Below, one piece after another: positions 25,903-47,037 of a stretch of DNA of 64,000 bases. Made by a program: the position numbers and the translations under genes. The notes beneath the pieces were generated by a model. That model saw only the letters and a list, made by a program, of their open reading frames with translations. It ran no database searches and was not told the origin of the DNA. The DNA lies in the sequence record SRR31156797_208; one strand, written 5' to 3'. Every line of letters begins with the position of its first letter. Position 1 is the stretch's first letter.

Positions 25903-27267
25903 GTGTCATACAACAAAAGAACGAATTTCTTTTTTATCTTAATTACCATTACTTACTTTGTTTTGGCTCTACCTATCGCTGTCACAATTAAAAACTACGT
26001 GGTTGGCAATGAAATTCAAAAAGTTGAACGTGTTGCTCTAAGTAACGTCGCGCTGATTCGCTCGAATATTGAAGCTTCGATCTTCATGGATACCTTTCTT
26101 GCCGATAGTCTGGCAACCTTAATTACCATTGATCCCAGCATGGCGTTTGAGAAATGGGACGTTATCGCTAAACAGTTACTCAACAAAGCGCAAAATGTCC
26201 GTAATGTGGCAGCCTCTCCGAACAATGTCATCCGTTATGTTTATCCACTAGAAGGGAACGAAAAAGCCTTGGGTACGGATCTATCGCGGATCCCGTCTCA
26301 GAATAAAGCGATTCAAATAGCAAAACAGATACAACATGTTTACATCGATGGTCCTGTTGATTTGATACAAGGCGGCAGAGGGTTGGTGGCTCGCTACCCT
26401 ATCTATTCAGATTACCCATACAACCAAGCGTACTGGGGTACGGTTAGCGTGGTGATCGATTTTGACAAGCTGTTAGAAACCAGTGGCTTGCATGATACGA
26501 AAGGAATCACCGTCGCGATTAAGAATGTGACCAACATTCCAACGCTAATCTATGGCAGTTTAGACACTTTTGATAGCCCATCGACTCAGCAACTCATCAA
26601 TTTACCTTACGGTAAATGGCAACTTGTCGCCAAGTTTAATATGGATGAAAGCTCACACATTCAGTTTATCAAACGCAGCGTTACAACCATGTTGGTCGTT
26701 GCGATACTGCTCATCTATGCACTGGTTTTTTCACTCTATCGAAATTACAAAACTGTCCATAAAGCCGCTATGCATGATGAGTTAACGCATTTGCCTAACC
26801 GACGTTACATAAATCAGCAACTCAACCGTATCACCAGAGGAAGAGATCGCAATAATCCTTTTACTCTGTTGAGCATCGACGTCAACGACTTCAAGCACGT
26901 CAACGATAACTACGGACATGATATTGGCGATAAGTTTTTAAAATTCATTGCAGAAAAGCTAAAAGAAAACGTGAGAAACACCGATACCGTCGCGCGAATG
27001 GGCGGGGATGAGTTTCTGATTATTTTGACTCACGTACACGAAAGTGAGCAAGTGCAGAGAGTCATCCAAACTCTTAAAGAAAAGATTGAGGGTGAAGTTT
27101 TTCACCATAAAATTGAAAAGATTCACCCGAGTTTAAGTATTGGCTATGCGGTTTGCGAACTAGGTAAATGCAATATTGATAATCTGATCTCTCAGGCCGA
27201 CCATTCAATGTATCTCAACAAGAATGCCAATGCTTTTTCAAATAAAGATGTTGCGGATAAAGAATAG
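25903..27267 (+). CDS. CHASE-domain sensor diguanylate cyclase
   Basis: Two TMs, YPLEGNEKALG and GPVDLIQGG CHASE motifs, RNTD I-site, RMGGDEF. Confidence 0.9.
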   Translation: MSYNKRTNFFFILITITYFVLALPIAVTIKNYVVGNEIQKVERVALSNVALIRSNIEASIFMDTFLADSLATLITIDPSMAFEKWDVIAKQLLNKAQNVRNVAASPNNVIRYVYPLEGNEKALGTDLSRIPSQNKAIQIAKQIQHVYIDGPVDLIQGGRGLVARYPIYSDYPYNQAYWGTVSVVIDFDKLLETSGLHDTKGITVAIKNVTNIPTLIYGSLDTFDSPSTQQLINLPYGKWQLVAKFNMDESSHIQFIKRSVTTMLVVAILLIYALVFSLYRNYKTVHKAAMHDELTHLPNRRYINQQLNRITRGRDRNNPFTLLSIDVNDFKHVNDNYGHDIGDKFLKFIAEKLKENVRNTDTVARMGGDEFLIILTHVHESEQVQRVIQTLKEKIEGEVFHHKIEKIHPSLSIGYAVCELGKCNIDNLISQADHSMYLNKNANAFSNKDVADKE

Positions 27268-27304
27268 CGGCACTGTGATTACTAGTACCGCTACTTTTGA
27301 CTAT

Positions 27305-29062
27305 CTATACGTTGTAATTACGCCAACTTATTAGATGAGTAATTTCTTCTGCACCAACGGTAGCAATCGGTTCGCATATAAAACCTTTAACCCAAGCGCC
27401 ATCTTCAAGCTCAATACTCCCCAAACCTAAAGGGTGCGGTATTTGAGCTAACAGTTTTCCAACCCCTTGCGTTGGCACTTGCCACACTTCTACGTCAATG
27501 GCTTGTCCGTTCTCCGTATCACGCACTAGACCCGGACGATTTGGCGGGCCACCAGCAAGCGCATAAAGACGGTAATTTTCAGACGTTCGAGTTTTCGCTT
27601 TAAAAACGCCACCCAACTCAATTAATTGATGATTCAATGGCAAGCCTTGCATATGAGCACCACATACCAAAATATCCATCATGGATTGCTTGTCGATAGT
27701 CTCGCCAGTAGCACCTAATGGTAGCGGAACCGCTTTTTGCCAATGCTTTGCAACAGACATTAACAAACGGTCACTGAATGCTGGAGCAAACAATGTAAAA
27801 CCAAATGGCAGACCTGAAGTACAAAAGGATGCCGGTATTGCGATAGCACTATAATCCAGTAAATTCATAAAGTTGGTGTAATAACCTAAGTTTGAATTCA
27901 GTGCGATTGGATCAGCATTCACTTCGTCGATGGTATAAGTTGAACCTGTAGTAGGTGTCAAAACCACATCAACTTGTTCCAATAGGTTATCGCAAACTAC
28001 TTTATACTCTTGCAGTTTATACATAGCCTTAAATGTATCTGCTGCCGAAAGAGATTTTGCCCCACCAATGATGGTTTCAATCACTGGTAAGCAGGCAGAG
28101 CTATCCGCATCGAAAAACTCCTGAATCGCTGCATATCGCTCTGCAACCCACGGTCCCTGATAGAGTAACGTCGCCGCATCTAAAAACGGAGCAAGATCAA
28201 ACTCTACAAGTTCAGCCCCCAACTGCTGCCATTTGTTCACACATAGCTTAAACTGAGCCTGATATTCTTCATTATCAAAAAACTCTAATTGATCTGCTTT
28301 TGGTACGCCTATTTTAAGTCCCGAAATACAATCCACTGACGGGCGGCTACTTGTATATGCACGGGAATAACAATCATCTGCATCATAAACACTGGCGACT
28401 TTGTGCAAAACTTCTAGATCGTCCGCCGTTCGTGCGAAGAAAGTGATGCAATCTAAAGTTCGACAAGCAGGTACCAACCCACTGTTACTTAATGTACCTT
28501 TCGTTGGTTTAAGACCAAGAATATTGTTGAAACCTGCAGGAACACGTCCTGAGCCAGCCGTATCTGTTCCTAGCGAGAAAAATACCTGATTGGTTGCAAC
28601 CGTCACCGCGCTGCCTGAACTCGAACCTCCTGAAATGTATTCAGGATTAAAGCTGTTTTTCGCAGCACCCCAAGGGCTACGAGTTCCCACTAGACCAGTC
28701 GCAAACTGGTCTAAGTTGGTTTTACCTAACGGAATAGCACCAGCAGTAATTAACAACTCAACCACAAACGCAGATTGTTCCGGCTGATAAGTATATTCAA
28801 CACAGCCCGCAGTCGTATTTAGACCTTCTAAATCAATATTATCTTTAATTGCGAAAGGCACACCATAAAGTGGCAGGTCATCAACATTGAAGCCTTCTAG
28901 CCCTTTAATATACTGCGCTAATTGTTGTTCACTGATTAAAGAAATCCACGCGTTATGCTGGTCGTTTTGCGCCAGTTGAAGCTTCTCCGACAAAAACTCT
29001 GCTGGAGTGACCGCCCCTTCACGATATGCCGCAAGTAATTGTTCAATAGATAGTAGTGTCAT
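27305..29062 (-). CDS. atzF: Allophanate hydrolase
   Basis: KDNID, GKTNLDQFATGLVGTRSP, SGGSSSGS, GTDTAGSGRVPA, C-terminal VCGAHMQGLPLN domain. Confidence 0.95.
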   Translation of the reverse strand: MTLLSIEQLLAAYREGAVTPAEFLSEKLQLAQNDQHNAWISLISEQQLAQYIKGLEGFNVDDLPLYGVPFAIKDNIDLEGLNTTAGCVEYTYQPEQSAFVVELLITAGAIPLGKTNLDQFATGLVGTRSPWGAAKNSFNPEYISGGSSSGSAVTVATNQVFFSLGTDTAGSGRVPAGFNNILGLKPTKGTLSNSGLVPACRTLDCITFFARTADDLEVLHKVASVYDADDCYSRAYTSSRPSVDCISGLKIGVPKADQLEFFDNEEYQAQFKLCVNKWQQLGAELVEFDLAPFLDAATLLYQGPWVAERYAAIQEFFDADSSACLPVIETIIGGAKSLSAADTFKAMYKLQEYKVVCDNLLEQVDVVLTPTTGSTYTIDEVNADPIALNSNLGYYTNFMNLLDYSAIAIPASFCTSGLPFGFTLFAPAFSDRLLMSVAKHWQKAVPLPLGATGETIDKQSMMDILVCGAHMQGLPLNHQLIELGGVFKAKTRTSENYRLYALAGGPPNRPGLVRDTENGQAIDVEVWQVPTQGVGKLLAQIPHPLGLGSIELEDGAWVKGFICEPIATVGAEEITHLISWRNYNV

Positions 29063-29063
29063 T

Positions 29064-32000
29064 TTACGCAGCTCCTTTACTAGTGGTAGTTTCATTGATC
29101 ACCATTAATGGTTGACCCGCTGTGACTTGAGCTCCTTGCTCGCTGCACAAAAACGCGATCTCACCAGAGCATGGTGCTACCACTTCAAGTTCCATCTTCA
29201 TAGCTTCGAGTATCATAATCACTTCGCCCGCCTGAACGGTTTTACCCGGCTCAGCAACAACCTGCCATACGTTCCCTGCCACCTGACTCTCTACTAAAGT
29301 TTGATTGTCTTCTAACTCAATCGCTTCCGCCTGTTCAACTTCCACTTCTTCAACCACAAAGTTTGCCTGACCAGACTCAACCCAGCGTTGACGCTCAGCT
29401 TCAAACGCCGTTTGCTGACGATGTTTACAACGTTCAATATCTGCGCCGTGTTCATCAACCAACGACTGGTAATCTGCCAGTGAAAAGGTTGTTTCTTCAA
29501 TCTTTAATGGATACTGACCCAATGGGTGTTTTTTGCGAATGTCCAGCAACTCTTCCGCACTCACTTCGTAGAAGCGAATCTGATCGAAGAATCTGAGCAA
29601 CCAGGGTTTTTGGAATTCTTTCGTCTGTCTGTAGCGATTCCACATTTGTAGCGTACGACCAACAAACTGATATCCACCTGGCCCTTCCATACCGTAAACA
29701 CAAAGATAGGCCCCACCAATGCCAACCGCATTTTCCGGTGTCCATGTGCGGGCAGGATTGTATTTAGTCGTCACTAGACGGTGACGAGGATCGATGGGTG
29801 TCGCGACTGGCGCACCTAAGTAAACGTCACCTAGTCCCATCACAAGATAACTTGCATCGAAAACGATTTTTTTAACTTCTTCAACGGAATCGAGTCCGTT
29901 AATACGACGAATGAACTCAATATTGTCCGGGCACCAAGGCGCGTTCTTTCTGACCAGTTCATCGTATTTTCGAATCGCCAAACGTGTTGCCTGATCGTCC
30001 CACGATAATGGAATGTTCACCACTCGAGCCGGAACGCGTAGCTGATCGATATCATCCATCTCATGCTCTAGCTGTTCCAGTAGTGTCAGAAGTTTGGAGC
30101 GAGACAAAACCAAATTATTAAAGTGAACCTGCAGTGAGCGAATACCCGGCGTCAGCTCTTCAACACCTTCAATCTTTAGCGACTCCAGTTTGAGCATCAA
30201 AGCATGTACACGAAAACGCAGACGAATATCCAACACTTGTGGGCCATATTCGACTAACAAGAAGTCCTCACCACTGGAACGATAAACAACCTCTTCACCA
30301 ACCTGCTGAGCAGAAAGGCTATGAACAATGGCTGTTTTACAGTCGCAAGCTTGTAAAGGAATGTGCTCAAAACCAACCGCTTCAACCTGCGCATTTTGTT
30401 TACGCTCCGCCATTTCAGCTTGCTCTAAGCTCACAGCAACAAAACGTACCTTGTCTCCCGCTTTAAGCTGTCCCATCTTCCACAAATCGGCTTTGATGAT
30501 GGTTGCTGGGCAAACAAACCCTCCTAGGCTTGGGCCATCCGGGCCTAAGATCACAGGCATATCACCGGTAAAATCGATGGTACCCACAGCATAAGCATTA
30601 TCATGGATATTTGATGGATGAAGCCCCGCTTCACCTCCATCCTGACGCGCCCAGTGTGGTTTTGGTCCGACCAGACGAACCCCCGTGCGGCTGGAGTTAA
30701 AATGAACCTTCCAGGTTGCATCAAAAAATTCAGAGATATCATTGTCAGTGAAGAAGTCTGGAGCACCGTGAGGGCCATACATCACACGGATTTCCCACAA
30801 TTCTTCCATTGCAGGCAGTACGCCCGATTTACCCGCTAACTCACCCAAACTTTCATTTTGTGAAACATGCAAGACGTCCCCCGCAAGCAACGCTCTGCCT
30901 GCGTGCCCACCGAACAGACCAAGTGTAAATGTCGATTTGCTGCCCAGATAATCCGGACATTGAATACCACCTTCCACAGCAAAATAACTGCGAGCGCCAT
31001 GGCCACTCACCTTACCCAGCTTTAGAGTTTGCCCTGCCTGAGCAAAATGAACTTCTCCATGATTCAACGGAGTCCCATCAAGTGTCGCGTCGATATGTGC
31101 ACCAGTAACAACAAACTGTTTAGCGGTGTTGAACTTCAGTGTTGGACCAGAAAGAATGATCTCTAATCCAGCACAGCTTTCTTCGTTATTCAGTAGCTGA
31201 TTGGCAAGACGAAAGCTTAATGAATCCATCGGCCCTGATGGTGGCACACCGATATTCCAGTAGCCTTTTCGGCCCGGGTAATCCTGAATAGTAGTTTGTG
31301 TACCACCGCTGATCACATCCAATGTTGTTGGCTTATAGACAAACTCATTCAGACTGCGTGTCAGAACTTCACCTTTTTGTACAAGCTCATTCGCCAATAG
31401 CTGTTTTAAATAGGCTTGGTTGTGTTCAATTCCATAGATAATCGTCTGTTCGAGGGACAGACTGAGTTTTGCTAAAGCATCTCGGCGGTTTTCACCATGA
31501 ACGATCACTTTCGCCAACATTGGATCAAAGAAGGGCGAAACTTCTACACCCGCTTCAATCCAATGCTCGACACGTAAGCCTTTAACTTTTGGCCACTCAA
31601 CATGGCTCAATAATCCTGCGCAAGGCTGAAAGGCTTTGTTCGCATCTTCTGCGTATAGACGAACCTGAATAGCATGGCCCTGAGGTTGCCTTTCTGCGGT
31701 CAGTTCCTCAATGGATAACTCACCAGCACCTAAGCGAACCATCCAGTCAACCAAATCAACACCGAAGACTTCTTCTGTGACGCCATGCTCAACCTGAAGG
31801 CGTGTATTCACCTCCAGAAAATAAAACTGTTTACTTTGTTGGTCGAAAACAAATTCCACCGTACCTGCGTTGCGGTAATTGATTTGTTCAGCCAATTTTA
31901 TAGCCGTAGTATGGAACGCATGACGGATATCATCGGATAGATTCGGTGCTGGTGTCTCTTCAATCACCTTCTGATTACGGCGTTGCGCCGAACAATCACG

Positions 32001-32675
32001 CTCTCCTAGAGCAACGACCTTGCCTTCACCGTCACCAAATATTTGCACTTCGATATGACGTGCGTGTTCAATGAATTTCTCTAAGAACACACCACTGTTA
32101 CTGAAATTGTTTTGGCTAAGACGCTTGACCGAATCAAACGCGGATTCTAAAGATTCAGAGTCATAACAACACTGCATGCCGATACCACCGCCACCAGCGG
32201 TACTCTTAAGCATGACAGGGTAACCAATTCGCTCAGCTTCGGTTAGCGCTTGCTGTTTATCTGTAAGAAGTTGAGTACCCGGAAGTAATGGTACACCAGC
32301 CTGTTCAGCCAGTTCCCGAGCAGAGTGCTTAAGACCAAACACTTCCATCTGTTCAGGCGTTGGGCCTAAAAATACAATATCGTTTTGCTCACACAGATGA
32401 ACAAAATCAGGGTTTTCACTTAAAAAGCCGTAACCCGGGTGAATCGCCTGTGCGCCACACTGCTTTGCGATATCAATAACACGCTGCTGATCGAGATAGG
32501 TCGCCGATGCGGCGCCTTCACCTAGAGAGTAAGCCTCGTCTGCATGCACGACATGTAGGCTTTGAGCGTCGGCTTCGCTGTATACCGCGACACTTGTCAC
32601 GCCTAATTTTTTTAGAGTTCTGATGACTCGGCATGCGATTGCGCCACGGTTTGCAATTAATACCTTGTTAAACAT
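29064..32675 (-). CDS. uca: Urea/guanidine carboxylase (biotin-dependent), probably guanidine-preferring
   Basis: ANRGAIA, HPGYGFLSEN, EVNTRLQVEH, PSNIHDNAYAVGTIDFTGD, TTKYNPARTWT, biotin motif EAMKM. Confidence 0.95.
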   Translation of the reverse strand: MFNKVLIANRGAIACRVIRTLKKLGVTSVAVYSEADAQSLHVVHADEAYSLGEGAASATYLDQQRVIDIAKQCGAQAIHPGYGFLSENPDFVHLCEQNDIVFLGPTPEQMEVFGLKHSARELAEQAGVPLLPGTQLLTDKQQALTEAERIGYPVMLKSTAGGGGIGMQCCYDSESLESAFDSVKRLSQNNFSNSGVFLEKFIEHARHIEVQIFGDGEGKVVALGERDCSAQRRNQKVIEETPAPNLSDDIRHAFHTTAIKLAEQINYRNAGTVEFVFDQQSKQFYFLEVNTRLQVEHGVTEEVFGVDLVDWMVRLGAGELSIEELTAERQPQGHAIQVRLYAEDANKAFQPCAGLLSHVEWPKVKGLRVEHWIEAGVEVSPFFDPMLAKVIVHGENRRDALAKLSLSLEQTIIYGIEHNQAYLKQLLANELVQKGEVLTRSLNEFVYKPTTLDVISGGTQTTIQDYPGRKGYWNIGVPPSGPMDSLSFRLANQLLNNEESCAGLEIILSGPTLKFNTAKQFVVTGAHIDATLDGTPLNHGEVHFAQAGQTLKLGKVSGHGARSYFAVEGGIQCPDYLGSKSTFTLGLFGGHAGRALLAGDVLHVSQNESLGELAGKSGVLPAMEELWEIRVMYGPHGAPDFFTDNDISEFFDATWKVHFNSSRTGVRLVGPKPHWARQDGGEAGLHPSNIHDNAYAVGTIDFTGDMPVILGPDGPSLGGFVCPATIIKADLWKMGQLKAGDKVRFVAVSLEQAEMAERKQNAQVEAVGFEHIPLQACDCKTAIVHSLSAQQVGEEVVYRSSGEDFLLVEYGPQVLDIRLRFRVHALMLKLESLKIEGVEELTPGIRSLQVHFNNLVLSRSKLLTLLEQLEHEMDDIDQLRVPARVVNIPLSWDDQATRLAIRKYDELVRKNAPWCPDNIEFIRRINGLDSVEEVKKIVFDASYLVMGLGDVYLGAPVATPIDPRHRLVTTKYNPARTWTPENAVGIGGAYLCVYGMEGPGGYQFVGRTLQMWNRYRQTKEFQKPWLLRFFDQIRFYEVSAEELLDIRKKHPLGQYPLKIEETTFSLADYQSLVDEHGADIERCKHRQQTAFEAERQRWVESGQANFVVEEVEVEQAEAIELEDNQTLVESQVAGNVWQVVAEPGKTVQAGEVIMILEAMKMELEVVAPCSGEIAFLCSEQGAQVTAGQPLMVINETTTSKGAA

Positions 32676-32693
32676 AAGCAAATCCAAATTTTG

Positions 32694-32739
32694 CGGGCCG
32701 TCCCGTTGATCCTTTTGAGCCTTGAATGGGGTCGTCCCC
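32694..32739 (-). ncRNA. Guanidine-II (mini-ykkC) riboswitch inside the operon, upstream of uca
   Basis: Two GC hairpins with ACGR loops, GGGG-ACGA-CCCC and CGGG-ACGG-CCCG, joined by a 22-nt linker and ending 18 nt before the uca ATG. Confidence 0.88.
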
Positions 32740-32755
32740 GGACTCTTGAGCCTTA

Positions 32756-33403
32756 TTAAGCTGCGCTATCCCATACCAGCACTTCAACCGGAGTCGGGTT
32801 GTAGGCATTACATGGGTTATTCAATTGAGGACAGTTGGAAATGAGCACAATCACGTCCATCTCCGCTTTCAGCTCAACATACTTCCCTGCGCCACTGATA
32901 CCGTCTTCAAACGTCAGTCCACCTTCTACGGTAATCGGAACGTTCATAAAGAAATTGATGTTATGGGTAATATCACGTTTACTCATACCGTACTGGTCGT
33001 TCTCCGCTACTGCGAGTAACCAGCTATCACGACAAGCATGCATACACTTCTTCTCAATCGCATAACGAACCGTGTTACTTTCCGTTGCACACGCACCACC
33101 TAAAGTGTCATGACGACCACAAGTATCAGCCACTATCTCAAGCATAGTGTTGCCCTGATCAGAAAGAATCTTTGTGCCCGCAGTCAGGTAGACATTGCCT
33201 TGCTCACGAATGGTATCAATAGCACTGTAGCGTTCACCCGGGTCATTAGCGTTGTAAAACAACGTGTCTGCAGCTTGGTTGCCTTCAAGATCCAAAATGC
33301 GAACTGTCTGGCCTTTCTTCACTACTTTCATGTAGTAATCACCGGCAGGAACGATATCGCGTCTAACGGCCTGTTCGGCCTGAAAACTACTTTCTACAAT
33401 CAT
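32756..33403 (-). CDS. cgdB: Urea carboxylase-associated protein 1 / carboxyguanidine deiminase subunit (DUF1989)
   Basis: [50 protein letters not shown]. Confidence 0.9.
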
Positions 33404-33413
33404 GATTCTCTCC

Positions 33414-34145
33414 TTAGTGATGGCTACACGCAGCGTGGAAACGGCGGTTGTTTTCGAAGCCACGGCTATTCTCTTCGCGTGATGTTAAACACGCGTCGTC
33501 AACAGCGACGGGTTCAGCTTCATAAACTGAAAATTCAACCGGAATAAATGGGTAATCTTTTGCTGGATTCATTGGGTGTGGGCAGGTAGTAAAAACCACT
33601 AACGTGTCCATTTCAAAACGAAGTTCAATACAGTCGCCTGCTTTGCTGTGTTGCTCAGCAAACGTCATATCACCCGCTTCATCCGTTTTTACCGCACTAA
33701 ACAGGTTAAGGTTTGCCGCCAAATCACGTTTACCTAACCCATATTTAGCCACTTCAACCAGCAGCGCATCATAACCATTTTGCTTCCACTGATTACGGTC
33801 GACCTGATAATCGCGTGCGCCCCACTTTTCGTTCACTTTCTGTTTGTTGGCGACACCACAAACGGTATCAATCCAAGATGTGTCATCACGAACAATAGAA
33901 CAGAACACATGTCCCATATCTGAATACAGACAGTGTCCGGTAGTCAGCTTAAACGTATGCTGACACTTCAATGTATCCGGTGCGTTGTATCGCTCCAGTA
34001 AATTGGTTGGATTGTAAAAAAGCATGCTGACGTTAGCCCCGCCCTCTAAGTCTTTAAGCTTAAGGACGGTGCCTTTTTTCATAACCATCGACCAGTGCGC
34101 TGCACCGGGAATCACATCAGTAAAAATTGGGTTGGATTCGGACAT
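33414..34145 (-). CDS. cgdA: Urea carboxylase-associated protein 2 / carboxyguanidine deiminase subunit (DUF1989)
   Basis: [35 protein letters not shown]. Confidence 0.9.
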
Positions 34146-34154
34146 CTTATTCTC

Positions 34155-34934
34155 CTAAGCAACTTGCAGTTGCTGTTTTACTGCACTGACTTGTTCCTTC
34201 TTATCAAGTGCAATATCAAACGTAACTCGAGCACCAAAGCGCTCTGGGGCTTGCTCATCAATACGGGTGTGGTCAAACACCCAAAGGCGGTTGCCTAAAT
34301 GAAAGCCTTCGCTCAAGTCGTGTGTAATCATAAATACCGTCAGCTGTTGTTCTCTCCACAGCTTCTTAACTAATGCATGCATATCTTTTCGAATCCCCGG
34401 ATCCAGAGCACCGAAAGGTTCATCGAGAAGTAAGATACGAGGCTTTTTAATTAGAGCCTGTGCGATAGACAAACGCTGACGCATACCGCCAGAAAGTTCA
34501 TGTGGGTATTTATTCTGAGCGTCGCTCAATCCCACTTCTTTCAACATCGCCTGTGCTTGTTGTTTGGCTTGCTGTTTACTGGAGCCGAAGGCGCGACCAA
34601 GTAGCTTTGAACTGAAATCGCCATGGGCAAATTCATGGCCAAGCATCACGTTTTCCAGAGCCGTCAAATGCGGAAATACTGAGTATTTCTGGAACACAAT
34701 GCCACGCTCAACTCCGGGCTCAGCCGAAAGTGGTTCACCATCGAGCAGAATCTGTCCACGTGATGGCTGCTCTGTCCCTAGCAGCATGTTGAGGAAAGTG
34801 GTTTTACCGCATCCGGAAGCGCCGACAATACTGACAAAATCGCCCGGTAACACTTTCAGATTGAGATGTTCAAGTACGATGTTATCGCCATACTCTTTCC
34901 ACACTTGCTTTACTTCGATAATTGGCTTTTCCAT
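34155..34934 (-). CDS. ABC ATPase (NitT/TauT type), guanidine uptake
   Basis: GASGCGKT, LSGGMRQR, LDEPFGALDPG; operon context. Confidence 0.9.
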   Translation of the reverse strand: MEKPIIEVKQVWKEYGDNIVLEHLNLKVLPGDFVSIVGASGCGKTTFLNMLLGTEQPSRGQILLDGEPLSAEPGVERGIVFQKYSVFPHLTALENVMLGHEFAHGDFSSKLLGRAFGSSKQQAKQQAQAMLKEVGLSDAQNKYPHELSGGMRQRLSIAQALIKKPRILLLDEPFGALDPGIRKDMHALVKKLWREQQLTVFMITHDLSEGFHLGNRLWVFDHTRIDEQAPERFGARVTFDIALDKKEQVSAVKQQLQVA

Positions 34935-34935
34935 C

Positions 34936-35757
34936 TTATTCTCCCTGACTCTGGTGATACCAAGGGCTGATCTTTTGCGATAACTGCTTAAGCAGCCAAT
35001 CCATGGTGTACGCCAATAGGGTGATCCAGAACACGTAAGGCAGAATTACATCCATCGACATATAACGACGAACCAGAAAGATTCGGTAACCCAGACCTTC
35101 AGTCGCCACAATGGCTTCCGCTGCAATAAGAAACAGCCATGCACTGCCCAAAGTAAGTCGAATTGCTTCAATCAGACGAGGAACAATCTGCGGAAGTACA
35201 ACTCGAAGAATGATCTGCCAACTGTTTCCACCTAATGTCTGAGCTTTGATAAGCTGCTCTTGCGGCAACGAGGAAGCTTTTAACTGGATATCTCTAACGA
35301 TGATTGGACAAATACCAATAAAGATAAGAACAACCTTAGATAGCTCGCCCAAGCCAAAGCTAATAAACAAAATCGGTAAAATTGCCATCGGAGGAATCAA
35401 CGAAATCGCTGTCACCACCGGAGATAGCGTTGAACGCACCATTGGCAGCATCCCGTTTGCTATTCCTAAAGACAACCCTACTAAAGCACTCAGGCCGACG
35501 CCTAATACAAGGCGTTGGAGACTGGCCAGAGTATCCACCCATAACAAATAGTCACCAGTACGTTTACTGGGAGTAAATGCCATTCGGTCAATCGCATCAA
35601 AAAAGCTGCTGAATGCAGGTAACAGTTTGTCTGCCGGATTGACCGCAAGTCGCGCATCGGAAGCCACCACATACAAAGCGATTAGAATCGCAAAAGGCAG
35701 CACTCCCAACATCAATCGTCCATATCGAGATGGGTGGCGGTTGATGAGTTTACTCAT
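34936..35757 (-). CDS. ABC permease (NitT/TauT type), guanidine uptake
   Basis: EQLIKAQTLGG, AWLFLIAAEAI, GLGYRIFLVRRY. Confidence 0.9.
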   Translation of the reverse strand: MSKLINRHPSRYGRLMLGVLPFAILIALYVVASDARLAVNPADKLLPAFSSFFDAIDRMAFTPSKRTGDYLLWVDTLASLQRLVLGVGLSALVGLSLGIANGMLPMVRSTLSPVVTAISLIPPMAILPILFISFGLGELSKVVLIFIGICPIIVRDIQLKASSLPQEQLIKAQTLGGNSWQIILRVVLPQIVPRLIEAIRLTLGSAWLFLIAAEAIVATEGLGYRIFLVRRYMSMDVILPYVFWITLLAYTMDWLLKQLSQKISPWYHQSQGE

Positions 35758-35811
35758 AGTGTCTCCAATTAACTTCCGGTTAATATTTCTATGGGTGATC
35801 GCTAAACGAGA

Positions 35812-36888
35812 TTACAGCTTTCCTTGTGCTGCCATATCCATGTAGTCAGCGGTAAAGCGCAGTTTAATATTGTCTGAATTACCGTAAACTCCGGTTGGAG
35901 TTTCAATTCCAATGAAGCCAGCATCAGGTGCACCTTCACCTAAAAGACCATGGTCAAAAGAGAACTCTGCCACTTTCTTCATTGTCTCTTTTAGCTCAGC
36001 GCTATTGGTGAACGTCACGGCATCACTGGCTTTGTAGTACATATTGGTTGCGGATAGCTGTTGGTTGTAACCGGACAAATCTGTACCTGACTGCATAGCC
36101 ATGTATGTTTTTGATTCATCTGCTGTAGATTCTGAAGTCATGACATCCATGATTTCATACCAGGCACCAGTCAGTGCTTTACCCAGTTTCGGGTTATCTT
36201 TAAGTGTTTCGGTATTTGCAACCATCAGATCAATGATTTCGCCCGGAATTTTAGACGAATCAAACACGAGGGACGTGCCAGGTTGTGCAGTTATTTCACT
36301 TAATAGTGGGTTCCATGTCGTCACCGCGGTCACATCATCTGTACTGAACGCAGCAACAATATCAGCATCAGATGTGTTCACCACTTTGACATCTTTCTCA
36401 GACAGACCAACACTTTCAAGGCCACGGGCCATTAAATAGTGGGAAACACTGAGTTCAACAAGATTGATGTTCTGTCCTTCAACATCTTTAAGAGTTTTGT
36501 CACCTTTAAGAACGATTCCGTCGTTACCGTTAGAGAAGTCACCAACAATCAAAGCCGTAGAATCAACGCCACTTGCTGCTGGGATAGTCAAAGCATCCAT
36601 GTTGGTCATTACTGTTGCGTCAAACTGACCCGTTGTGTACTGGTTAATAGATTCAACGTAATCGTTGACCTGAACGATATTGACTTTGATACCGTATTTC
36701 TCTGCCCACTTATCCATAATGCCAGAGTAAGCAGCATAGTCCCACGGCATCCAGCCAACGTAGATTGACCAAGCAATCGTAAACTCTGATTTTTCTTCAG
36801 CATAAGCAGATTGAGAAACAAAAGGAGCAGAAAGTACACTAACAGATAGTGCTATTGCCGTTAGAGAGTGTTTAAAGATTGGTTTCAT
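35812..36888 (-). CDS. Urea-carboxylase-associated ABC substrate-binding protein (probable guanidine binder)
   Basis: Signal peptide, AWSIYVGWMPW, NDYVESINQYT, TNMDALTIPA; GGAGGT SD before MKPIF. Confidence 0.9.
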   Translation of the reverse strand: MKPIFKHSLTAIALSVSVLSAPFVSQSAYAEEKSEFTIAWSIYVGWMPWDYAAYSGIMDKWAEKYGIKVNIVQVNDYVESINQYTTGQFDATVMTNMDALTIPAASGVDSTALIVGDFSNGNDGIVLKGDKTLKDVEGQNINLVELSVSHYLMARGLESVGLSEKDVKVVNTSDADIVAAFSTDDVTAVTTWNPLLSEITAQPGTSLVFDSSKIPGEIIDLMVANTETLKDNPKLGKALTGAWYEIMDVMTSESTADESKTYMAMQSGTDLSGYNQQLSATNMYYKASDAVTFTNSAELKETMKKVAEFSFDHGLLGEGAPDAGFIGIETPTGVYGNSDNIKLRFTADYMDMAAQGKL

Positions 36889-36957
36889 AGGATCACCTCC
36901 AATGTGAGTCACTTTTAAAAACATAAACGCGAGAGCATAACCAATGAAATTGGTTGG

Positions 36958-37050
36958 CCTCCCGGGCTTTTGTCCCGCCGTGTGACCTCATAAGAGGTTG
37001 ACAACTCTCGGACCAGACACTGCGTTGCAGCCGGAACCCTAGATGTCTAT
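36958..37050 (-). ncRNA. Guanidine-I (ykkC-yxkD) riboswitch
   Basis: Minus strand CTAGGGTTCCG...CTGGTCCGAGAG...ACACGGCGGGACAAAAGCCCGGGAGG, the conserved core of this class, in the leader of a carboxylase operon. Confidence 0.94.
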
Positions 37051-37120
37051 TTTAATCAAATTGTGATTAGTTGTGGTGTTTCACTTAGTTATGCTCATCG
37101 CAACTAACTGTTTTAACGCT

Positions 37121-37137
37121 TGCAATGAGCATGCCAA
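37121..37137 (-). promoter_or_regulatory. Sigma54 (-24/-12) promoter of the guanidine operon
   Basis: TTGGCATGCTCATTGCA = GG-N10-GC with consensus flanks. Confidence 0.85.
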
Positions 37138-37188
37138 ACGAAAAATGTCTGCGTTTATGGGCTTCTAGAGCATTACACCAATGTATTA

Positions 37189-37226
37189 CGCACCAAAGCA
37201 ATGCAATAGTTCATCACTTTAGTGCG
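37189..37226. promoter_or_regulatory. Tandem NtrC-like enhancer boxes
   Basis: CGCACCAAAGCAATGCA (37189-37205) and TTCATCACTTTAGTGCG (37210-37226) versus TGCACCA-N3-TGGTGCA, upstream of the sigma54 site. Confidence 0.72.
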
Positions 37227-37242: not shown

Positions 37243-38331
37243 TTACACCGGTACTTGTTGAGTAATGCAGTGAATATTACCGCCACCCAATAAGATCTCG
37301 CGAGCATTCACACCCACAACTTCATGTTCGGGGAAGGCTTTTTGCAAAGCAACTTGAGCAACCGAATCATTGTTGGAATCCAATAATGGAAAAACAACTC
37401 GACCGTTGGTGATTAAGAAGTTCGCGTATGAAGCAGCTAAACGCTCCCCAGCCTCACGCTCCATACCATCGCTTTGATCAATACCCTGCGCTTCATGTTC
37501 TTCAATATAAAGCGGGCCCGGCATTGGCAATTTATGGACCCTGATTGAACGCCCCTTTGCATCTAACTGGGTACTCAACACATCGTACGCTGAACGACTT
37601 ATATCATATTGAGGGTCATTCAAATCTTCACACCAGGTTAAAGCCACTTCTCCCGGTTTAACAATGTGCATGATGTTATCAACATGGCCGTTCGTTTCAT
37701 CATTAAATAAGCCATTCGGTAGCCAGATAACCTTTTCCGCACCAAGATATTGTGCCAGATAGTTTTCCATATCCTGTTTAGAAAGATCGGGATTTCGACT
37801 GGTATGAAGTAAGCACTCTTCTGTGGTGTAAATAGTGCCCTCGCCATCAGTATGTATCGAGCCACCTTCCAATACGAATGGTGCTTTGAACATATCGTCA
37901 CCAGTGATATTAAGCATTTTTTCCGCTACAGCATCATCGAGATCCCATGGGAAATAAAGCCCATCAACCAAACCACCCCAGGCGTTAAACTGCCAACTCA
38001 CTCCGCTTCGTTCGCCCTTATCGTTCACAATATAGCTCGCGCCAATATCACGCATCCAGCAATCGTTATAAGACATCTCGACAACTTTAATATGATCCGG
38101 CAATTGTGCGCGCGCATTTGCAAATTGTTCGTGACCGACCAGCATGACGACTGGAGTAGCTTCTGCAATAACCGACGCTACATTAACGAAAGCTTTTTGA
38201 GCCAGCTTCCCGCTAAAGCGCCAGTTATCACTCCGTACTGGCCACGCCATCCAAACTTCTTTTTGAGGTTCATGTTCAGCGGGCATGCGAAAGCCAAAGT
38301 CTTTGGGGTAACCATCAATGATTGAAGTCAT
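37243..38331 (-). CDS. aguA: Agmatine deiminase
   Basis: FRMPAEHEP, NDCWMRDIG, EGGSIHTDGEG, DETNGHVDN, GGGNIHCITQQ. Confidence 0.95.
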   Translation of the reverse strand: MTSIIDGYPKDFGFRMPAEHEPQKEVWMAWPVRSDNWRFSGKLAQKAFVNVASVIAEATPVVMLVGHEQFANARAQLPDHIKVVEMSYNDCWMRDIGASYIVNDKGERSGVSWQFNAWGGLVDGLYFPWDLDDAVAEKMLNITGDDMFKAPFVLEGGSIHTDGEGTIYTTEECLLHTSRNPDLSKQDMENYLAQYLGAEKVIWLPNGLFNDETNGHVDNIMHIVKPGEVALTWCEDLNDPQYDISRSAYDVLSTQLDAKGRSIRVHKLPMPGPLYIEEHEAQGIDQSDGMEREAGERLAASYANFLITNGRVVFPLLDSNNDSVAQVALQKAFPEHEVVGVNAREILLGGGNIHCITQQVPV

Positions 38332-39719
38332 ACAACACCTCTCACAACGGTGCTTTCAGCTTGCGAATTTGCACGCTTTAATAGCAGTTCACCCACAACA
38401 ACGGTAGCAATCACACCCACTAATATCGGTAATGAGTACTGCCAGTCTACTGAGCCAAAAATGATATCTGGGAACATGAACAGAACAACAGCTTGCAGAA
38501 TGATTAGGAAACAAACCACAGTCATCAACTTTTGAAGACCAATACTACCCGGTACCTTAAACGGTCTAGGCGTTGAAGTATCAGAAAGACGAAGCTTAAG
38601 AAATGCAGGGAACATAAACAGATAAGGCACTAAGAATACACAGCTTGAAAATGCAAACATAGACCAGAACAACTCATCGTTACTGTTCGCAAAGAAGGCA
38701 TAAACAGCAATCACAGCAGTAGAAACTAAACCTGTACCTGTATTAGCGCCGACAGGTGTTGAATATTTGTCAGAGGTTTTGCCTAACAGGGCAGGAAGTT
38801 CACCGTCACGCGCCGATTCCGCAGCTGCACGGCTTGAACCCATCGTCCAGCTCACCATATTACCGATAAACGTAATCAGCGTAACAACACCCAGTGCGTA
38901 CGTCATAAACTGACCGAGTACACCATCGCCAAACAGCACTTTTAGCGTATCAATAATCCCTGCGACTAAGCCGACTTCTTCAACAGGCAATGCCATCAAA
39001 ATGCCCAGAGTACCAATGATGTATAACAGTGCCGTTACCGACATTGCCAAAAATACCACTTTCGGCATCTGTTTCACGTCTTTCATTTCTTTGGTCATTG
39101 TTGCGACTAACTCAAAACCCATCAGGTTAAAAACCAGAGCCGGAAGGAATGCAACACCAGAATCAAATGACGGAATAATGGCAGCAAAAGTGAATTCATT
39201 CGCAACACCATTTTTCGCCGCATAGATGAATCCACCGATACCTAGTACAGAAATAATTAACACTTTCAATATGGCGCAGAAGTTAGTGACCCAAACGCCG
39301 ATATCAACAGAAACATTACATACCCAAACCGTAAACCAGGTCAGAGCAATACACATAATGACTTGTGCAAACAGAGAAAGATCCGGTGCAAATAGTTCAG
39401 AAAATGTACCTGCAAACAGTATGTATACCGCCGGCATCCACAAGCCGACGTTGATCCAATAGAACCATGTCGTTCTAATTGCCCAGTTTGATCCGAAAGC
39501 GCGTTTTACCCAGTCGTAAATACCGCCCTCTCCCGGATAAGCCGAGCTCAGTTCAGAAGTAATCAAACCATATGGCAGTACAAACACCACTAATACCAAT
39601 GCCCACCATCCTAGCGAGCTGACACCAATTGACGCTGATGCCGTTAACGTATCCACGACTAACACTGCACATAAGCTGAACAGTGCCAGAGGCGTTATGC
39701 CCATTTTTTTGTCTTCCAT
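38328..39719 (-). CDS. APC-family permease, probable agmatine (or agmatine/putrescine) transporter
   Basis: Multiple TM helices, ELSSAYPGEGGIYDWV, GFE, RPFKVPG; lies between aguB and aguA. Confidence 0.85.
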   Translation of the reverse strand: MEDKKMGITPLALFSLCAVLVVDTLTASASIGVSSLGWWALVLVVFVLPYGLITSELSSAYPGEGGIYDWVKRAFGSNWAIRTTWFYWINVGLWMPAVYILFAGTFSELFAPDLSLFAQVIMCIALTWFTVWVCNVSVDIGVWVTNFCAILKVLIISVLGIGGFIYAAKNGVANEFTFAAIIPSFDSGVAFLPALVFNLMGFELVATMTKEMKDVKQMPKVVFLAMSVTALLYIIGTLGILMALPVEEVGLVAGIIDTLKVLFGDGVLGQFMTYALGVVTLITFIGNMVSWTMGSSRAAAESARDGELPALLGKTSDKYSTPVGANTGTGLVSTAVIAVYAFFANSNDELFWSMFAFSSCVFLVPYLFMFPAFLKLRLSDTSTPRPFKVPGSIGLQKLMTVVCFLIILQAVVLFMFPDIIFGSVDWQYSLPILVGVIATVVVGELLLKRANSQAESTVVRGVV

Positions 39720-39723
39720 GACA

Positions 39724-40605
39724 TTAACCTTTTAGCTGTCCATCCAATGTGAATAAGTGTTTGTATTGCTCTGGATGTCGGTCTCGGAACAATCCCCAGG
39801 CACTGCGTTGGAATGCGATTTCATCTAGGTCAAACTCATGCACAAGAACGCCCTGAGTTTCACGATCCGCTTTCGCTAAAATTTCACCATTGTAATTAGC
39901 AATGAACGACGAACCAAAGAAGTTGATTTCCATATCTCGGGTTTGAGCCTGCTCACGACCAATACGGTTTGATGCGATCACTGGCATGACGTTAGAAGCC
40001 GCATGGCCCTGCATTGCATTTTGCCAAGCGGGCTGAGAATCTAACTCCGGCTGGCTTGGTTCACTACCAATTGCAGTCGGGAAGAACAGCAGCTCTGCAC
40101 CTTGCAGTGCCATGCTTCTCGCTGTTTCAGGGAACCATTGATCCCAGCAAATGCCAACACCAATTTTACCGTAGCGAGTATCCCAAACTTTAAAACCTGT
40201 ATCGCCGGGGTTGAAATAGTACTTTTCTAAATAACCATCACTGTCTGGTATATGGGTTTTACGATAAACCCCCAACAGTGAGCCATCTGCATCAATCACA
40301 GCTACAGAGTTAAATCTTGCGTAACCCGCTTTTTCGAACCAGCTAAAGGGTAAAACAACCTGCAACTCTTTAGCCAATTCTGTCAGTTTTTTGAATGTTG
40401 CGTTTTCTTCGAGCGTAGATGCCAGTTTGTGATACTCTTCGCTAATCTCAATACAAAAGTACGGTGTTTCAAAAAGCTCTTGTAAAAGAATTACTTGTGC
40501 ACCTTTTGCAGCAGCCTCACGAACCAAGTGTTCTGCTTTCTCTACATTCTCTTCCACATTCCAAGAGCACGACATTTGAGTCGCGGCAACAGTGACTTTT
40601 CTCAT
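39724..40605 (-). CDS. aguB: N-carbamoylputrescine amidase
   Basis: Nitrilase-fold triad LQELF, YRKTHIPD, GICWDQWFPE; PTAIGSEP. Confidence 0.94.
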   Translation of the reverse strand: MRKVTVAATQMSCSWNVEENVEKAEHLVREAAAKGAQVILLQELFETPYFCIEISEEYHKLASTLEENATFKKLTELAKELQVVLPFSWFEKAGYARFNSVAVIDADGSLLGVYRKTHIPDSDGYLEKYYFNPGDTGFKVWDTRYGKIGVGICWDQWFPETARSMALQGAELLFFPTAIGSEPSQPELDSQPAWQNAMQGHAASNVMPVIASNRIGREQAQTRDMEINFFGSSFIANYNGEILAKADRETQGVLVHEFDLDEIAFQRSAWGLFRDRHPEQYKHLFTLDGQLKG

Positions 40606-40710: not shown

Positions 40711-41604
40711 ATGGATATGGACATCAACCAGCTGCGATTGTTAGTGGTGCTGGAAAAGGAAAGAAACCTGTCTAAAGCTGCACAAAAACTATTTATGAGC
40801 CAGTCGGCAGCGAGCCACGTTCTGTCAAAACTTCGTACCCGTTTTGACAACCCGCTTTTTATCAAAACACGTACTGGGATGGAGCCTACTCCGTTGGTAC
40901 AAATTTTATTACCTGAAATTCAAAAAGGTTTAATTTCCATTGATATGGCATTGGCAAAAACTAAACCATTTAATCCAGAGGTCGATGCCAAAACCTTCTA
41001 CATAGGTGCCATTGATTACTTCGAATTTTATGCGTTGCCTCGTCTTGGTAAAGCTCTAGAAAAAAGAGCACCAAACGTGCGAATTGCGATAGAAATCTTA
41101 TCTGAAAATATGCAGATGGAGCGAGTGGAACAGGGTCATATTGACCTGACGTTAGGTGTCGATGACCTACAAACCATGCCTCGTTATTATCATAGATATC
41201 ACTGGCTGACAGACCCTTACGTTGGCATCGTTGCTAAAGATAACCCTCTACCGAACAAACTGAGCCTCAAAACTTTTCTTGAAGCGCCACAAGTTCATTT
41301 ACCACTGATCAATTCTGGGGCAGATCCCATTGATCGCTGGCTGTTAGATCAACATCAGGCACGACATATTTCAATGATTGTTCAGAGTTTTGCTGTCGGT
41401 GGACTCGTCGTGTCAAATACGAGCAATTTAATGTGTGTTCCCCTCAGAATAGCCGAAGAGCTCTGCAAGATGCTGCCAATTCGAATAGTGAAATTACCTA
41501 AAGGAACACCCGATCTTTCTCTTAGTATGTTTACTCACCAACTGTATGACAGTCAGGACAGTGTTCAGTGGCTAATCAAAGAAGTTCAAAAGTGTATCTT
41601 ATAA
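40711..41604 (+). CDS. LysR-family regulator divergent from the agu operon
   Basis: SKAAQKLFMSQSAASHVLSKLRTRFDNPLF HTH. Confidence 0.92.
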   Translation: MDMDINQLRLLVVLEKERNLSKAAQKLFMSQSAASHVLSKLRTRFDNPLFIKTRTGMEPTPLVQILLPEIQKGLISIDMALAKTKPFNPEVDAKTFYIGAIDYFEFYALPRLGKALEKRAPNVRIAIEILSENMQMERVEQGHIDLTLGVDDLQTMPRYYHRYHWLTDPYVGIVAKDNPLPNKLSLKTFLEAPQVHLPLINSGADPIDRWLLDQHQARHISMIVQSFAVGGLVVSNTSNLMCVPLRIAEELCKMLPIRIVKLPKGTPDLSLSMFTHQLYDSQDSVQWLIKEVQKCIL

Positions 41605-43188: not shown

Positions 43189-43263
43189 GATAGCTCCTTT
43201 CTTTATACTCCTGCCTTTTTTAAGTAATCAATGGATGAGGGGTTGTTGTCAAGCCCCTATTTT

Positions 43264-43299
43264 TGCACCACTTTTAACACCTTGCACCAAAATGAACCA
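43264..43299. promoter_or_regulatory. NtrC-like half-sites upstream of the purine ABC promoter
   Basis: TGCACCA at 43264 and 43283; right halves poor. Confidence 0.5.
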
Positions 43300-43343
43300 C
43301 AACTCAGTTGTCCCTTATATCCAACCCCTTGAGCTTATTGATG

Positions 43344-43368
43344 TTGAACAGTTGGTCAAGTTTTTGCA
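43344..43368 (+). promoter_or_regulatory. RutR box overlapping a sigma54 promoter
   Basis: TTGAACAGTTGGTCAA (43344-43359) versus TTGACCA-N2-TGGTCAA; GG(43354-55)-N10-GC(43366-67). Confidence 0.8.
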
Positions 43369-46989: not shown

Positions 46990-46995
46990 CCAATC

Positions 46996-47027: not shown

Positions 47028-47037
47028 CCCAACCTAT

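Follow-up and report, generated by a model that had tools for sequence, protein, structure and literature searches.

The guanidine genes found in a 64,000-nt stretch of DNA (the window) raise the question of how a protein-controlled promoter and two different RNA sensors might act together on a single message. The original prediction had listed, in the order of transcription, two NtrC-like boxes, a sigma54 promoter, a guanidine-I aptamer, ABC genes, cgdAB, a guanidine-II aptamer and genes for a carboxylase and a hydrolase. All of these parts are present on the minus strand, at or within the positions that it had assigned to them, and the coordinates below refer to that strand. Their arrangement predicts a seven-gene operon for the uptake of guanidine and its conversion to ammonia. 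The importer is composed of a periplasmic substrate-binding protein (35812–36888; TIGR03427, 544.9 bits against a cut-off of 333.9), an ABC permease (34936–35757; PF00528, TauC/NtrB-like) and an ABC ATPase (34155–34934; PF00005). There follow two DUF1989 proteins, a CgdA-like carboxyguanidine deiminase subunit of the UAAP1 type (33414–34145; TIGR03425, 316.7 bits, cut-off 205.95) and a CgdB-like protein of the UAAP2 type (32756–33463; TIGR03424, 339.6 bits, cut-off 284.7), and then a biotin-dependent urea/guanidine carboxylase (29064–32675; TIGR02712, 1830.8 bits, cut-off 1303.85) and an allophanate hydrolase (27305–29095; TIGR02713, 753.1 bits, cut-off 511.05). The five diagnostic families among these thus all exceed their NCBIfam cut-offs.

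The guanidine-pathway families are contiguous and co-oriented, with intergenic spacing that runs from overlap up to 80 nt; the hydrolase open reading frame overlaps the 3′ end of the carboxylase gene by 32 nt. Inspection by eye revealed a hairpin with a T-rich tail directly 3′ of the last operon stop (27257–27292), which is a possible operon terminator and is absent from the terminator scan because its loop exceeds the limit of that scan. For the substrate-binding protein, the open reading frame list gives a start at 36924, while the ATG at 36888, preceded by GGAGG, is the likely start. The closest CgdB is that of Vibrio comitans (87%). Alignments to CgdB relatives begin at residues 2–25, and its true start probably lies downstream of the listed GTG.

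In the proposed pathway, the ABC importer would take up guanidine, the biotin carboxylase would convert it to carboxyguanidine, the CgdAB-type deiminase would release ammonia and leave allophanate, and the hydrolase would free the remaining nitrogen, the enzymatic steps being those known from the literature. The database names suggest a different substrate. The NCBIfam families are called urea carboxylase and urea amidolyase-associated proteins, and the best solved relatives of the carboxylase are the yeast urea carboxylase/amidolyase structures 3va7 and 5i8i. A structure search found no solved relative of CgdA, and the matches to CgdB were confined to uncharacterised DUF1989 structures and TMAO demethylase. 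It is nevertheless very improbable that the enzymes act on urea and that guanidine is merely a by-signal for the riboswitches. These genes would be governed by two independent guanidine-specific RNA classes and, to our knowledge, true urea amidolyases have no need of the DUF1989 pair. Moreover, the accessible text of a 2025 review identifies the products of such genes as a guanidine carboxylase, a carboxyguanidine deaminase and an allophanate hydrolase (PMC12186494). From this context, the carboxylase would favour guanidine over urea.

The first gate would be the promoter itself. A pattern search identified TGGCAT-N5-TTGCA at 37121–37136, the single match in the window where 0.26 would be expected, which bears out the predicted sigma54 (-24/-12) promoter. 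Promoters of this type follow the consensus TGGCAC-N5-TTGCW, with its GG and GC elements, and require an ATP-dependent activator. In the window match the GG and GC elements are 10 nt apart, and the site lies in a non-coding spacer on the same strand as the operon. Transcription would begin here, with a predicted start near 37111; a promoter scan of the leader spacer listed no minus-strand sigma70-like site. The pattern recurs within 300 nt upstream of the guanidine-I aptamer in 30 of 53 related leaders, mostly 75–108 nt ahead of the aptamer core. Leaders of 52 loci hold 29 matches, compared to 29 in 1.79 million other strand-bases, the background elsewhere in the related loci being 0.016 per kb. 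This recurrence agrees with a survey of predicted sigma54 regulons, in the accessible text of which a guanidine link is absent and "riboswitch" appears only in the reference list (PMC12316311).

Which protein might activate this promoter? Both of the predicted NtrC-like boxes are present. The distal box (37210–37226; three mismatches to TGCACY-N5-GGTGCA) begins 17 nt past the aguA stop codon, and the proximal box (37189–37205; two mismatches) has its centre ~86 nt ahead of the predicted transcription start, with the two centres 21 bp apart. NtrC enhancers contain one or more TGCACC-N5-GGTGCA-type dyads about 70–150 nt upstream of the promoter. At the stringency of the two boxes, the window contains 56 matches versus 83.8 expected from shuffled sequence and, therefore, the boxes taken alone are no better than chance. 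Related loci, by contrast, show enrichment. Over the 180 nt that precede the relatives' sigma54 promoters, boxes with at most two mismatches occur at 1.80 per kb versus 0.068 per kb, a 26-fold enrichment that becomes 7.6-fold when three mismatches are allowed, and at least one box is found at 20 of 31 related promoters, located 69–147 nt upstream.

It is conceivable that some other enhancer-binding protein, encoded elsewhere, drives a real sigma54 promoter and that both window boxes are chance matches. The two and three mismatches in these boxes and their shortfall relative to shuffled sequence would be explained in this way, as would the 11 of 31 related promoters that lack an NtrC-like box at three or fewer mismatches, and each relative's genome encodes many sigma54-activator paralogues. 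We consider this unlikely, however, as box-type sequences are enriched at the right place across the related leaders and none of the 45 window open reading frames of at least 200 aa contains a sigma54-activator domain. In addition, NtrC dependence has been reported for Burkholderia orthologues; according to the accessible text of that study, the "urea carboxylase" cluster BCAS0269–0272 of B. cenocepacia H111 is expressed at a lower level when ntrC is mutated and nitrogen is limiting (PMC5491218). The likeness of that cluster to the window operon is one of annotation (a binding protein, a DUF1989 protein named as an "aminomethyltransferase" and a carboxylase), and riboswitches are not discussed in the same text (PMC5491218). 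An ntrC equivalog is present in all three genomes of the nearest relatives. Hence, NtrC, the global nitrogen regulator, acting at the upstream boxes is the most likely activator, a view that draws on the enrichment in relatives and on the lack of an activator gene among the window open reading frames more than on the window boxes, which are weak.

The second gate would be provided by the guanidine-I aptamer (ykkC subtype 1; 36957–37053), which precedes the TIGR03427 importer gene. A covariance search with the Rfam ykkC-yxkD model confirmed it: RF00442 matched at full length, over model positions 1–107 of 107, with 86.3 bits against a cut-off of 63, and of 11 related loci scanned, 10 also score above the cut-off of this model. 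Folding places a terminator-like hairpin and U-rich run at 36917–36964 (stem region 36930–36964). The 5′ strand of this hairpin takes in the conserved 3′ tail of the aptamer, while its 3′ strand (36928–36949) doubles as the partner of a strand in the leader; as a local structure the hairpin has an energy of -14.6 kcal/mol, and it forms when the leader strand is blocked. The U-rich run past the hairpin (36917–36927) is interrupted, with 6 U in the 8 nt after the stem, and a simple terminator scan did not list the hairpin. A strong U-run follows the leader hairpin in only 9 of 55 relatives, and the leader switch may therefore not use intrinsic termination everywhere. In the proposed mechanism, the aptamer would decide whether the hairpin, which borrows its 3′ tail, can form: bound guanidine would hold the tail and polymerase would continue. 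The behaviour is that described for the class in the literature and the geometry is that seen here. The full-length match and the tail-borrowing hairpin are shared with RF00442 aptamers that have a downstream terminator. The 107-position RF00442 model covers neither the leader strand upstream, whose partner is the 3′ strand of the hairpin, nor a conserved ACAAU motif, the latter being located immediately 5′ of the aptamer in 36 of 56 sequences.

The leader strand in question (L5; 37079–37102) pairs with 36928–36949 to form a long-range helix whose 22 pairs appear in the minimum-energy fold as well as in the centroid fold. The helix covaries in a related subgroup, and a test of cognate versus non-cognate pairing was counted as support. 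Among the relatives, the partner of the leader overlaps or abuts the partner of the aptamer tail in 43 of 55. An RNAalifold consensus of 13 sequences nests the helix around a fully formed aptamer and, when the aptamer is enforced, the helix contributes about 15 kcal/mol. A covarying helix between the 5′ leader and the strand immediately after the guanidine-I aptamer appears to be unreported. The leader strand, near the transcript 5′ end, is a conserved element predicted to pair with the hairpin's 3′ strand. We read this pairing as a closing helix, which would seize the 3′ strand when guanidine occupies the aptamer and lock the message ON. The helix is computed to be stabler than the hairpin (-23.7 kcal/mol for the leader duplex versus -14.6 kcal/mol), such that equilibrium would mean constitutive read-through and the model therefore requires kinetic control.

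The same duplex could serve other ends, either as a signal for RNA processing or stability, such as an RNase III site or a decay-altering 5′ structure, or as a stacked pseudoknot that strengthens the OFF state. Its 22 pairs in the window and the scarcity of strong U-runs among the relatives speak for such a role, as do the many relatives in which the leader partner abuts the tail partner without overlap, an arrangement whose geometry would permit a stacked pseudoknot. These possibilities deserve attention but we think them somewhat unlikely, since the nesting around the formed aptamer and the energy gained when the aptamer is enforced both fit the ligand-bound form. Our broader proposal is a tentative one that falls just short of an even chance: the guanidine-I platforms of proteobacterial guanidine operons may contain an undescribed third strand, located near the 5′ end of the sigma54 transcript, which pairs across 140–200 nt with the strand that would otherwise complete the terminator-like hairpin on the aptamer tail. 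It would act as a ligand-gated, ON-committing closing helix or an OFF-tuning pseudoknot and is accompanied by the conserved ACAAU motif.

The third gate would lie within the operon. Between the cgdB stop (32756–32758) and the carboxylase ATG (32675), paired hairpins form a candidate guanidine-II (mini-ykkC) aptamer (32690–32743). P1 (32728–32739) is capped by an ACGA loop and P2 (32694–32705) by an ACGG loop; each stem has 4 G-C/C-G pairs and the linker is 22 nt. The Rfam mini-ykkC model, RF01068, matched 32693–32743 with 25.9 bits, below its cut-off of 32 (E 0.068 in a 10.5-kb search), because the stems are short, with three non-standard outer pairs in P1. Four-pair stems are among the shortest in the relatives and are found in 8 of 52 for P1 and 6 of 52 for P2. 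Although the predicted aptamer thus falls short of the Rfam threshold, several other results argue for it. Within the window the paired-hairpin pattern has a single occurrence, and none of 100 shuffles contains it. A model built from the junction sites of 49 relatives, with the window excluded (model R1), scores the site at 33.1 bits (E about 1.8e-07 in 64 kb), and nothing else reaches E ≤ 10 except a partial hit of 8 nt (4.9 bits, E 5.8). The stems covary in the 49 relatives (95.7% paired versus 73.5% when shuffled, 0/500), with double changes at 7 of 11 stem pairs. A double ACGR hairpin is located at most 80 nt upstream of the carboxylase start in 52 of the 69 sequences with a recognisable start, and the RF01068 cut-off is passed at the same junction in 3 of 11 relatives (L002, L021 and L062).

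By the behaviour of its class, the guanidine-II aptamer, 19 nt ahead of the start codon, would control translation of the carboxylase and probably also of the overlapping hydrolase gene. The minimum-energy fold does not show the carboxylase ribosome site sequestered and, across 52 sequences, cognate combinations pair no better than non-cognate ones, whether tail to tail or through the linker. The accessible text of Focht et al. 2023 describes how, in P. aeruginosa guanidine-II, ligand-induced loop kissing frees the ribosome site (PMC10351892). The window element resembles that RNA in its two ACGR-capped hairpins, variable linker and position close before a start codon, but the P. aeruginosa OFF state is a P0 helix in which the 5′ and 3′ tails pair (PMC10351892), whereas the carboxylase sites show no significant tail pairing and the window element resides inside an operon, 19 nt past a stop codon.

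An internal position raises the possibility that the carboxylase and hydrolase genes form a separate unit, transcribed from a promoter in or just after cgdB, with the guanidine-II element as its 5′ leader. Leaders are indeed the usual place for guanidine-II elements. We judge this quite unlikely. The gap between the cgdB stop and the carboxylase ATG is only 80 nt, of which the aptamer takes 54, and scans of the minus strand detected no sigma70-like site in the cgdB 3′ end or the cgdB-carboxylase junction and no terminator-like site at that junction. One contig from RNA-library material, which consists of contigs from relatives, spans 32503–32778 over both genes; this is weak evidence because contigs cannot prove a single transcript.

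The locus is probably one polycistronic guanidine-assimilation operon that is triple-gated by sigma54/NtrC, guanidine-I and guanidine-II, and its sequence anatomy indicates that expression should require both nitrogen scarcity and the presence of guanidine. The original prediction, in which an AND gate combines nitrogen limitation with guanidine and a further guanidine checkpoint precedes the carboxylase, fits the anatomy, which is conserved in both the double hairpins (52/69) and the sigma54 pattern (30/53); its weak point is the NtrC boxes of the window. Given this order of gates, the importer and deiminase would be made at the first guanidine signal, while the costly ATP- and biotin-using carboxylase would await a second, cooperative reading of guanidine. 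The hint that the layered arrangement might be novel did not hold. A two-riboswitch layout has been published for Raoultella, Erwinia and Klebsiella: the 2025 review, in its accessible text on enterobacteria, places guanidine-I before the importer and CgdAB genes and guanidine-II before the carboxylase and hydrolase genes, an order of elements and genes identical to that of the window, which is itself Vibrio-like (PMC12186494). In the same text sigma54, NtrC and promoters are unmentioned for these enterobacterial operons (PMC12186494). The wiring of the operon recurs in many other bacteria and is ordinary and known in outline.

The operon provides a clean natural case of protein- and RNA-based control layered on one message. 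What merits specialist attention is the covarying helix that links leader and tail around the guanidine-I aptamer. If the third strand is real, it would, along with the sigma54/NtrC promoter and the guanidine-II element inside the operon, constitute a four-layer decision circuit on one mRNA and, if the helix is functional, present switching models for guanidine-I in Proteobacteria would be incomplete. The operon also indicates that some Vibrionaceae can probably use guanidine as a nitrogen source; the CgdB marker exceeds its cut-off in 49 of 401 genomes sampled from the family of the nearest relative.

The seven genes of the guanidine operon all lie in the same orientation on the minus strand, within 27305-37226, and every gene call exceeded its curated NCBIfam cut-off, with Pfam in agreement. 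They encode, as the original prediction had listed, an ABC substrate-binding protein of the "urea carboxylase-associated" type (TIGR03427), an ABC permease and an ABC ATPase (NCBIfam/Pfam), the DUF1989 pair UAAP1/UAAP2 (TIGR03425 and TIGR03424), which the current literature names carboxyguanidine deiminase, CgdAB, a biotin carboxylase of 1203 residues (TIGR02712) and an allophanate hydrolase (TIGR02713). A 32-nt overlap between the ORFs for carboxylase and hydrolase suggests that their translation is coupled. Among solved structures the CgdA-like protein had no match, and the CgdB-like protein matched only uncharacterised DUF1989 entries and TMAO demethylase. The operon is real and had been correctly read, and its main design is already known: section 6 of a review (PMC12186494) describes the two-riboswitch layout, with a guanidine-II riboswitch preceding the carboxylase and allophanate hydrolase genes that come directly after the importer and deiminase genes. 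That review nowhere uses the terms sigma, NtrC, nitrogen starvation or Vibrio, and the literature searched gave no link of a guanidine riboswitch or carboxylase to NtrC, RpoN or sigma-54.

Relatives of the operon were collected as 80 loci from a scan with the CgdB-like protein, one genome per species. The closest come from Vibrio comitans (87%), a Psychromonas, Vibrio albus and Vibrio sp. YIC-376, and further loci from many marine Gammaproteobacteria and some Alphaproteobacteria. Of 401 genomes sampled from the family of the nearest relative, 49 carry the CgdB marker above its cut-off, making the operon a minority accessory trait there and not a rarity. Base composition gave no sign of a foreign island, with GC at 0.42-0.49 across 20-46 kb.

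The guanidine-I aptamer (RF00442, ykkC) at 36957-37053 (minus strand) is full length and scores 86.3 bits with the Rfam model against a gathering score of 63, bearing out its original assignment; the RF00442 cut-off was also passed in 10 of 11 related loci scanned. Guanidine-I is described as usually a transcriptional ON switch in which a terminator competes with the aptamer (PMC12186494). A hairpin computed at -14.6 kcal/mol can arise when 36930-36945 pairs with the conserved 3' tail of the window's aptamer and the 10 nt that follow it; in computed folds it appears once the leader strand is kept from pairing and no aptamer fold is imposed. The U-run behind this hairpin is interrupted, and a strong U-run is found in only 9/55 relatives, so that termination, judged from sequence, may not be the output in every relative. 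Two short motifs flank these elements. In 36/56 sequences (the window, at 37054-37070 on the minus strand, and 35/55 others; background 0.68 per kb) an ACAAU stands at most 16 nt from the aptamer on its 5' side, and it is kept even where the adjoining P1 stem covaries. A GUGUAA/GUGAC-type motif stands between the tail or leader hairpin and the importer ribosome site in 22/56 sequences (background 0.95 per kb), the window's GUGACUC/GUGUAAC-type copy being at 36901-36912 (minus strand).

The guanidine-II aptamer was found where it had been placed, in the gap that separates the carboxylase ATG from the end of cgdB, but it scores 25.9 bits with the Rfam mini-ykkC model (RF01068) and so falls short of the cut-off of 32. 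It consists of two hairpins with ACGA and ACGG loops, each closed by four G-C pairs, and a 22-nt joining stretch; the window contains this double-hairpin pattern a single time, and 0/100 shuffles contain it. The Rfam shortfall is attributable to the short stems, four-pair stems being present in 8/52 relatives for P1 and 6/52 for P2, and the RF01068 cut-off was passed at the same junction in 3/11 related loci scanned. A carboxylase start could be recognised in 69 sequences, the window and 68 loci, and 52 of them have a double ACGR hairpin no more than 80 nt upstream of it. By pattern scan, both riboswitches are present in 34/56 sequences with enough upstream DNA, an undercount since four loci (L001, L003, L037 and L048) miss the guanidine-I pattern and pass Rfam. 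Both stems covary across 49 junction elements, with 95.7% of alignment cells paired against 73.5% in shuffled controls (0/500) and 23-54% in slid controls. A covariance model of this alignment, which was built without the window, matches the window site with 33.1 bits (rough E 1.8e-07), the only other match at E ≤ 10 being an 8-nt partial one (4.9 bits, E 5.8). On the strength of the covariation in relatives and the 33.1-bit match, we accept the window's guanidine-II aptamer as real despite its Rfam score.

Guanidine-II is described as a cooperative translational ON switch (PMC12186494, PMC10351892), and in the window the element ends 19 nt before the carboxylase ATG, with a weak GGA ribosome site between. 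Neither the fold of the window nor tail and linker tests on 52 sequences revealed an OFF-state pairing that hides this ribosome site. A 3' tail paired with either the 5' tail or the linker, as in the P. aeruginosa model, was dropped because cognate combinations did no better than non-cognate ones: median scores were 10 against 10.8 for the 5' tail (3/52 sequences at ≤5%) and 9 against 9.8 for the linker (1/52), and the window's best candidates, scoring 12 and 13, are reached by 31% and 16% of non-cognate pairs. By eye, a nine-letter direct repeat is seen just before P1 (32741-32755) and in the guanidine-II linker (32713-32724), both on the minus strand.

Upstream of the leader, the consensus sigma54 promoter of the original prediction was recovered as TGGCAT-N5-TTGCA at 37121-37136 (minus strand), the sole such match in 64 kb, where 0.26 would be expected. 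Of 53 guanidine-I sites, 30 have the pattern TGGCA-N7-TGCW in the 300 nt upstream, in most cases 75-108 nt ahead of the aptamer core, against a background of 0.016 per kb in the remaining parts of the relatives' loci. A sigma54-like match at 15775-15790 (plus strand) was dismissed as no better than chance; it falls within the ORF of a permease. The two predicted NtrC-like boxes are present, with 2 and 3 mismatches, but matches at such stringency number 56 in the window against 83.8 in shuffled sequence, and thus the two boxes, taken alone, prove nothing. Across the relatives, NtrC-type dyads in the 180 nt upstream of 31 related promoters reach 1.80 per kb at ≤2 mismatches, against 0.068 elsewhere, and 4.68 per kb at ≤3 mismatches, against 0.62 elsewhere; at least one box is present at 20 of these promoters, 69-147 nt upstream. 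With the sequence around them otherwise unalignable, the enriched boxes give support of the footprint type to an NtrC-like activator throughout the operon family, the window's own boxes being weak. No sigma54-activator domain was found among the 45 window ORFs of at least 200 residues, which argues for a global activator. The ntrC equivalog is above cut-off in each of the three nearest relatives' genomes. An orthologous cluster in B. cenocepacia is tabulated as NtrC-dependent (PMC5491218), and in a 2025 survey 102 genes of the DUF1989 COG are predicted to be under sigma54 control (PMC12316311).

The one detail of the operon that may be new is a helix between the leader and the tail, the stretch just 3' of the guanidine-I aptamer. 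In both the minimum-energy and the centroid fold of the leader, 37079-37102, near the inferred 5' end, forms 22 pairs with 36928-36949 (minus strand), and since this partner is also the closing strand of the terminator-like hairpin, helix and hairpin compete. The computed energy of the duplex is -23.7 kcal/mol, and imposing the consensus fold on the aptamer leaves the helix in place, with a gain of ~15 kcal/mol (-42.9 vs -27.7). Complementarity of leader and tail recurs in relatives with different sequences. As whole-leader duplex folding gave long and uninformative duplexes, each leader was instead compared with each tail by the best ungapped stem score. Among 55 sequences the median score was 24 for cognate and 18 for non-cognate combinations, and in 23/55 no more than 5% of foreign tails matched the cognate score, where ~3/55 would be expected by chance, a comparison made conservative by related loci within the set. 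The leader's pairing partner within the tail overlaps the partner of the aptamer's own 3' tail, or lies directly against it, in 43/55.

Covariation in the helix was counted in a subgroup of 13 sequences that MAFFT aligned well (Marinobacterium, Marinomonas, Cellvibrio, Halopseudomonas, Microbulbifer and others), the window and 8 near relatives being out of register at the flanks. Pairing there was 93.4% against 78.8% in shuffled controls (0/500) and 26-52% in slid controls, with double changes in 7/7 helix pairs against 2.9 in shuffles. The Rfam guanidine-I model lacks such a helix, and the literature searched on guanidine-I, antiterminators and leaders, including one review, makes no mention of it. 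Possible alternatives are that the helix is a pseudoknot stabilising the OFF state, or a processing signal; RNAalifold, given the 13 aligned sequences, predicted it unprompted and nested around an intact aptamer. We read it as a closing helix, with a predicted direction of action: once guanidine holds the aptamer tail, the closing helix would capture the 3' strand of the terminator.

Other layouts occur among the relatives. In eight loci, several of them alphaproteobacterial (L016, L019, L023, L028, L031, L051, L071 and L077), the double ACGR hairpin precedes the DUF1989 genes, at about 5150-5300 of the locus, instead of the carboxylase. Two of these loci, L028 and L031, have it directly after the guanidine-I aptamer, placing the two classes in tandem. 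Seven Marinobacter loci (L029, L036, L039, L042, L047, L050 and L052) differ from the window's operon and carry a strong U7 terminator. Guanidine-I lies ~900 nt before their CgdB match, a spacing that leaves no importer genes between the two, and neither a carboxylase start nor a guanidine-II pattern was found further along these loci.

The window as a whole is a nitrogen-scavenging neighbourhood, its gene content combining guanidine and agmatine genes with a purine block. An agmatine deiminase pathway cluster (aguB, an APC-family transporter and aguA; 37243-40605, minus strand) lies directly upstream on the same strand and ends 17 nt before the distal NtrC-like box, with no terminator found between them by scan; read-through from aguA would meet the guanidine-I switch. 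Beyond it are a divergent LysR regulator (40711-41604, plus strand) and a purine-salvage and catabolism block (42550-56566) with a TetR regulator of the YcdC type, DUF5718, a nucleoside-type ABC transporter (PnrA/Bmp), xanthine dehydrogenase XdhABC, an amidohydrolase and a PuuD-type urate oxidase. At the other end, an 8-pair hairpin with a T-rich tail (27257-27292), seen by eye after the allophanate hydrolase stop, overlaps the 3' end of a convergent CHASE-GGDEF gene (ending at 27267) and may be a shared terminator.

The only RNA libraries with related sequence are those of one seawater study, whose contigs have 90-99% likeness to the window; they span the leader (36788-37136) and reach across the junction of cgdB with the carboxylase (32503-32778), though such libraries may hold DNA and the contigs do not show starts, ends, strand or a single transcript. 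One of the contigs stops matching the window right at the upstream edge of the promoter (37136), which shows only a relative with a different upstream neighbour. Sequence scanning listed neither a sigma70-like promoter nor a terminator-like site on the coding strand at the junction, and the simplest reading would therefore be one mRNA with an internal translational check before the carboxylase. Nitrogen limitation would license initiation, guanidine would license elongation into the importer and deiminase genes, and a second, cooperative reading of guanidine would license the ATP- and biotin-consuming carboxylase; we infer that this three-step gating logic is plausible and conserved.
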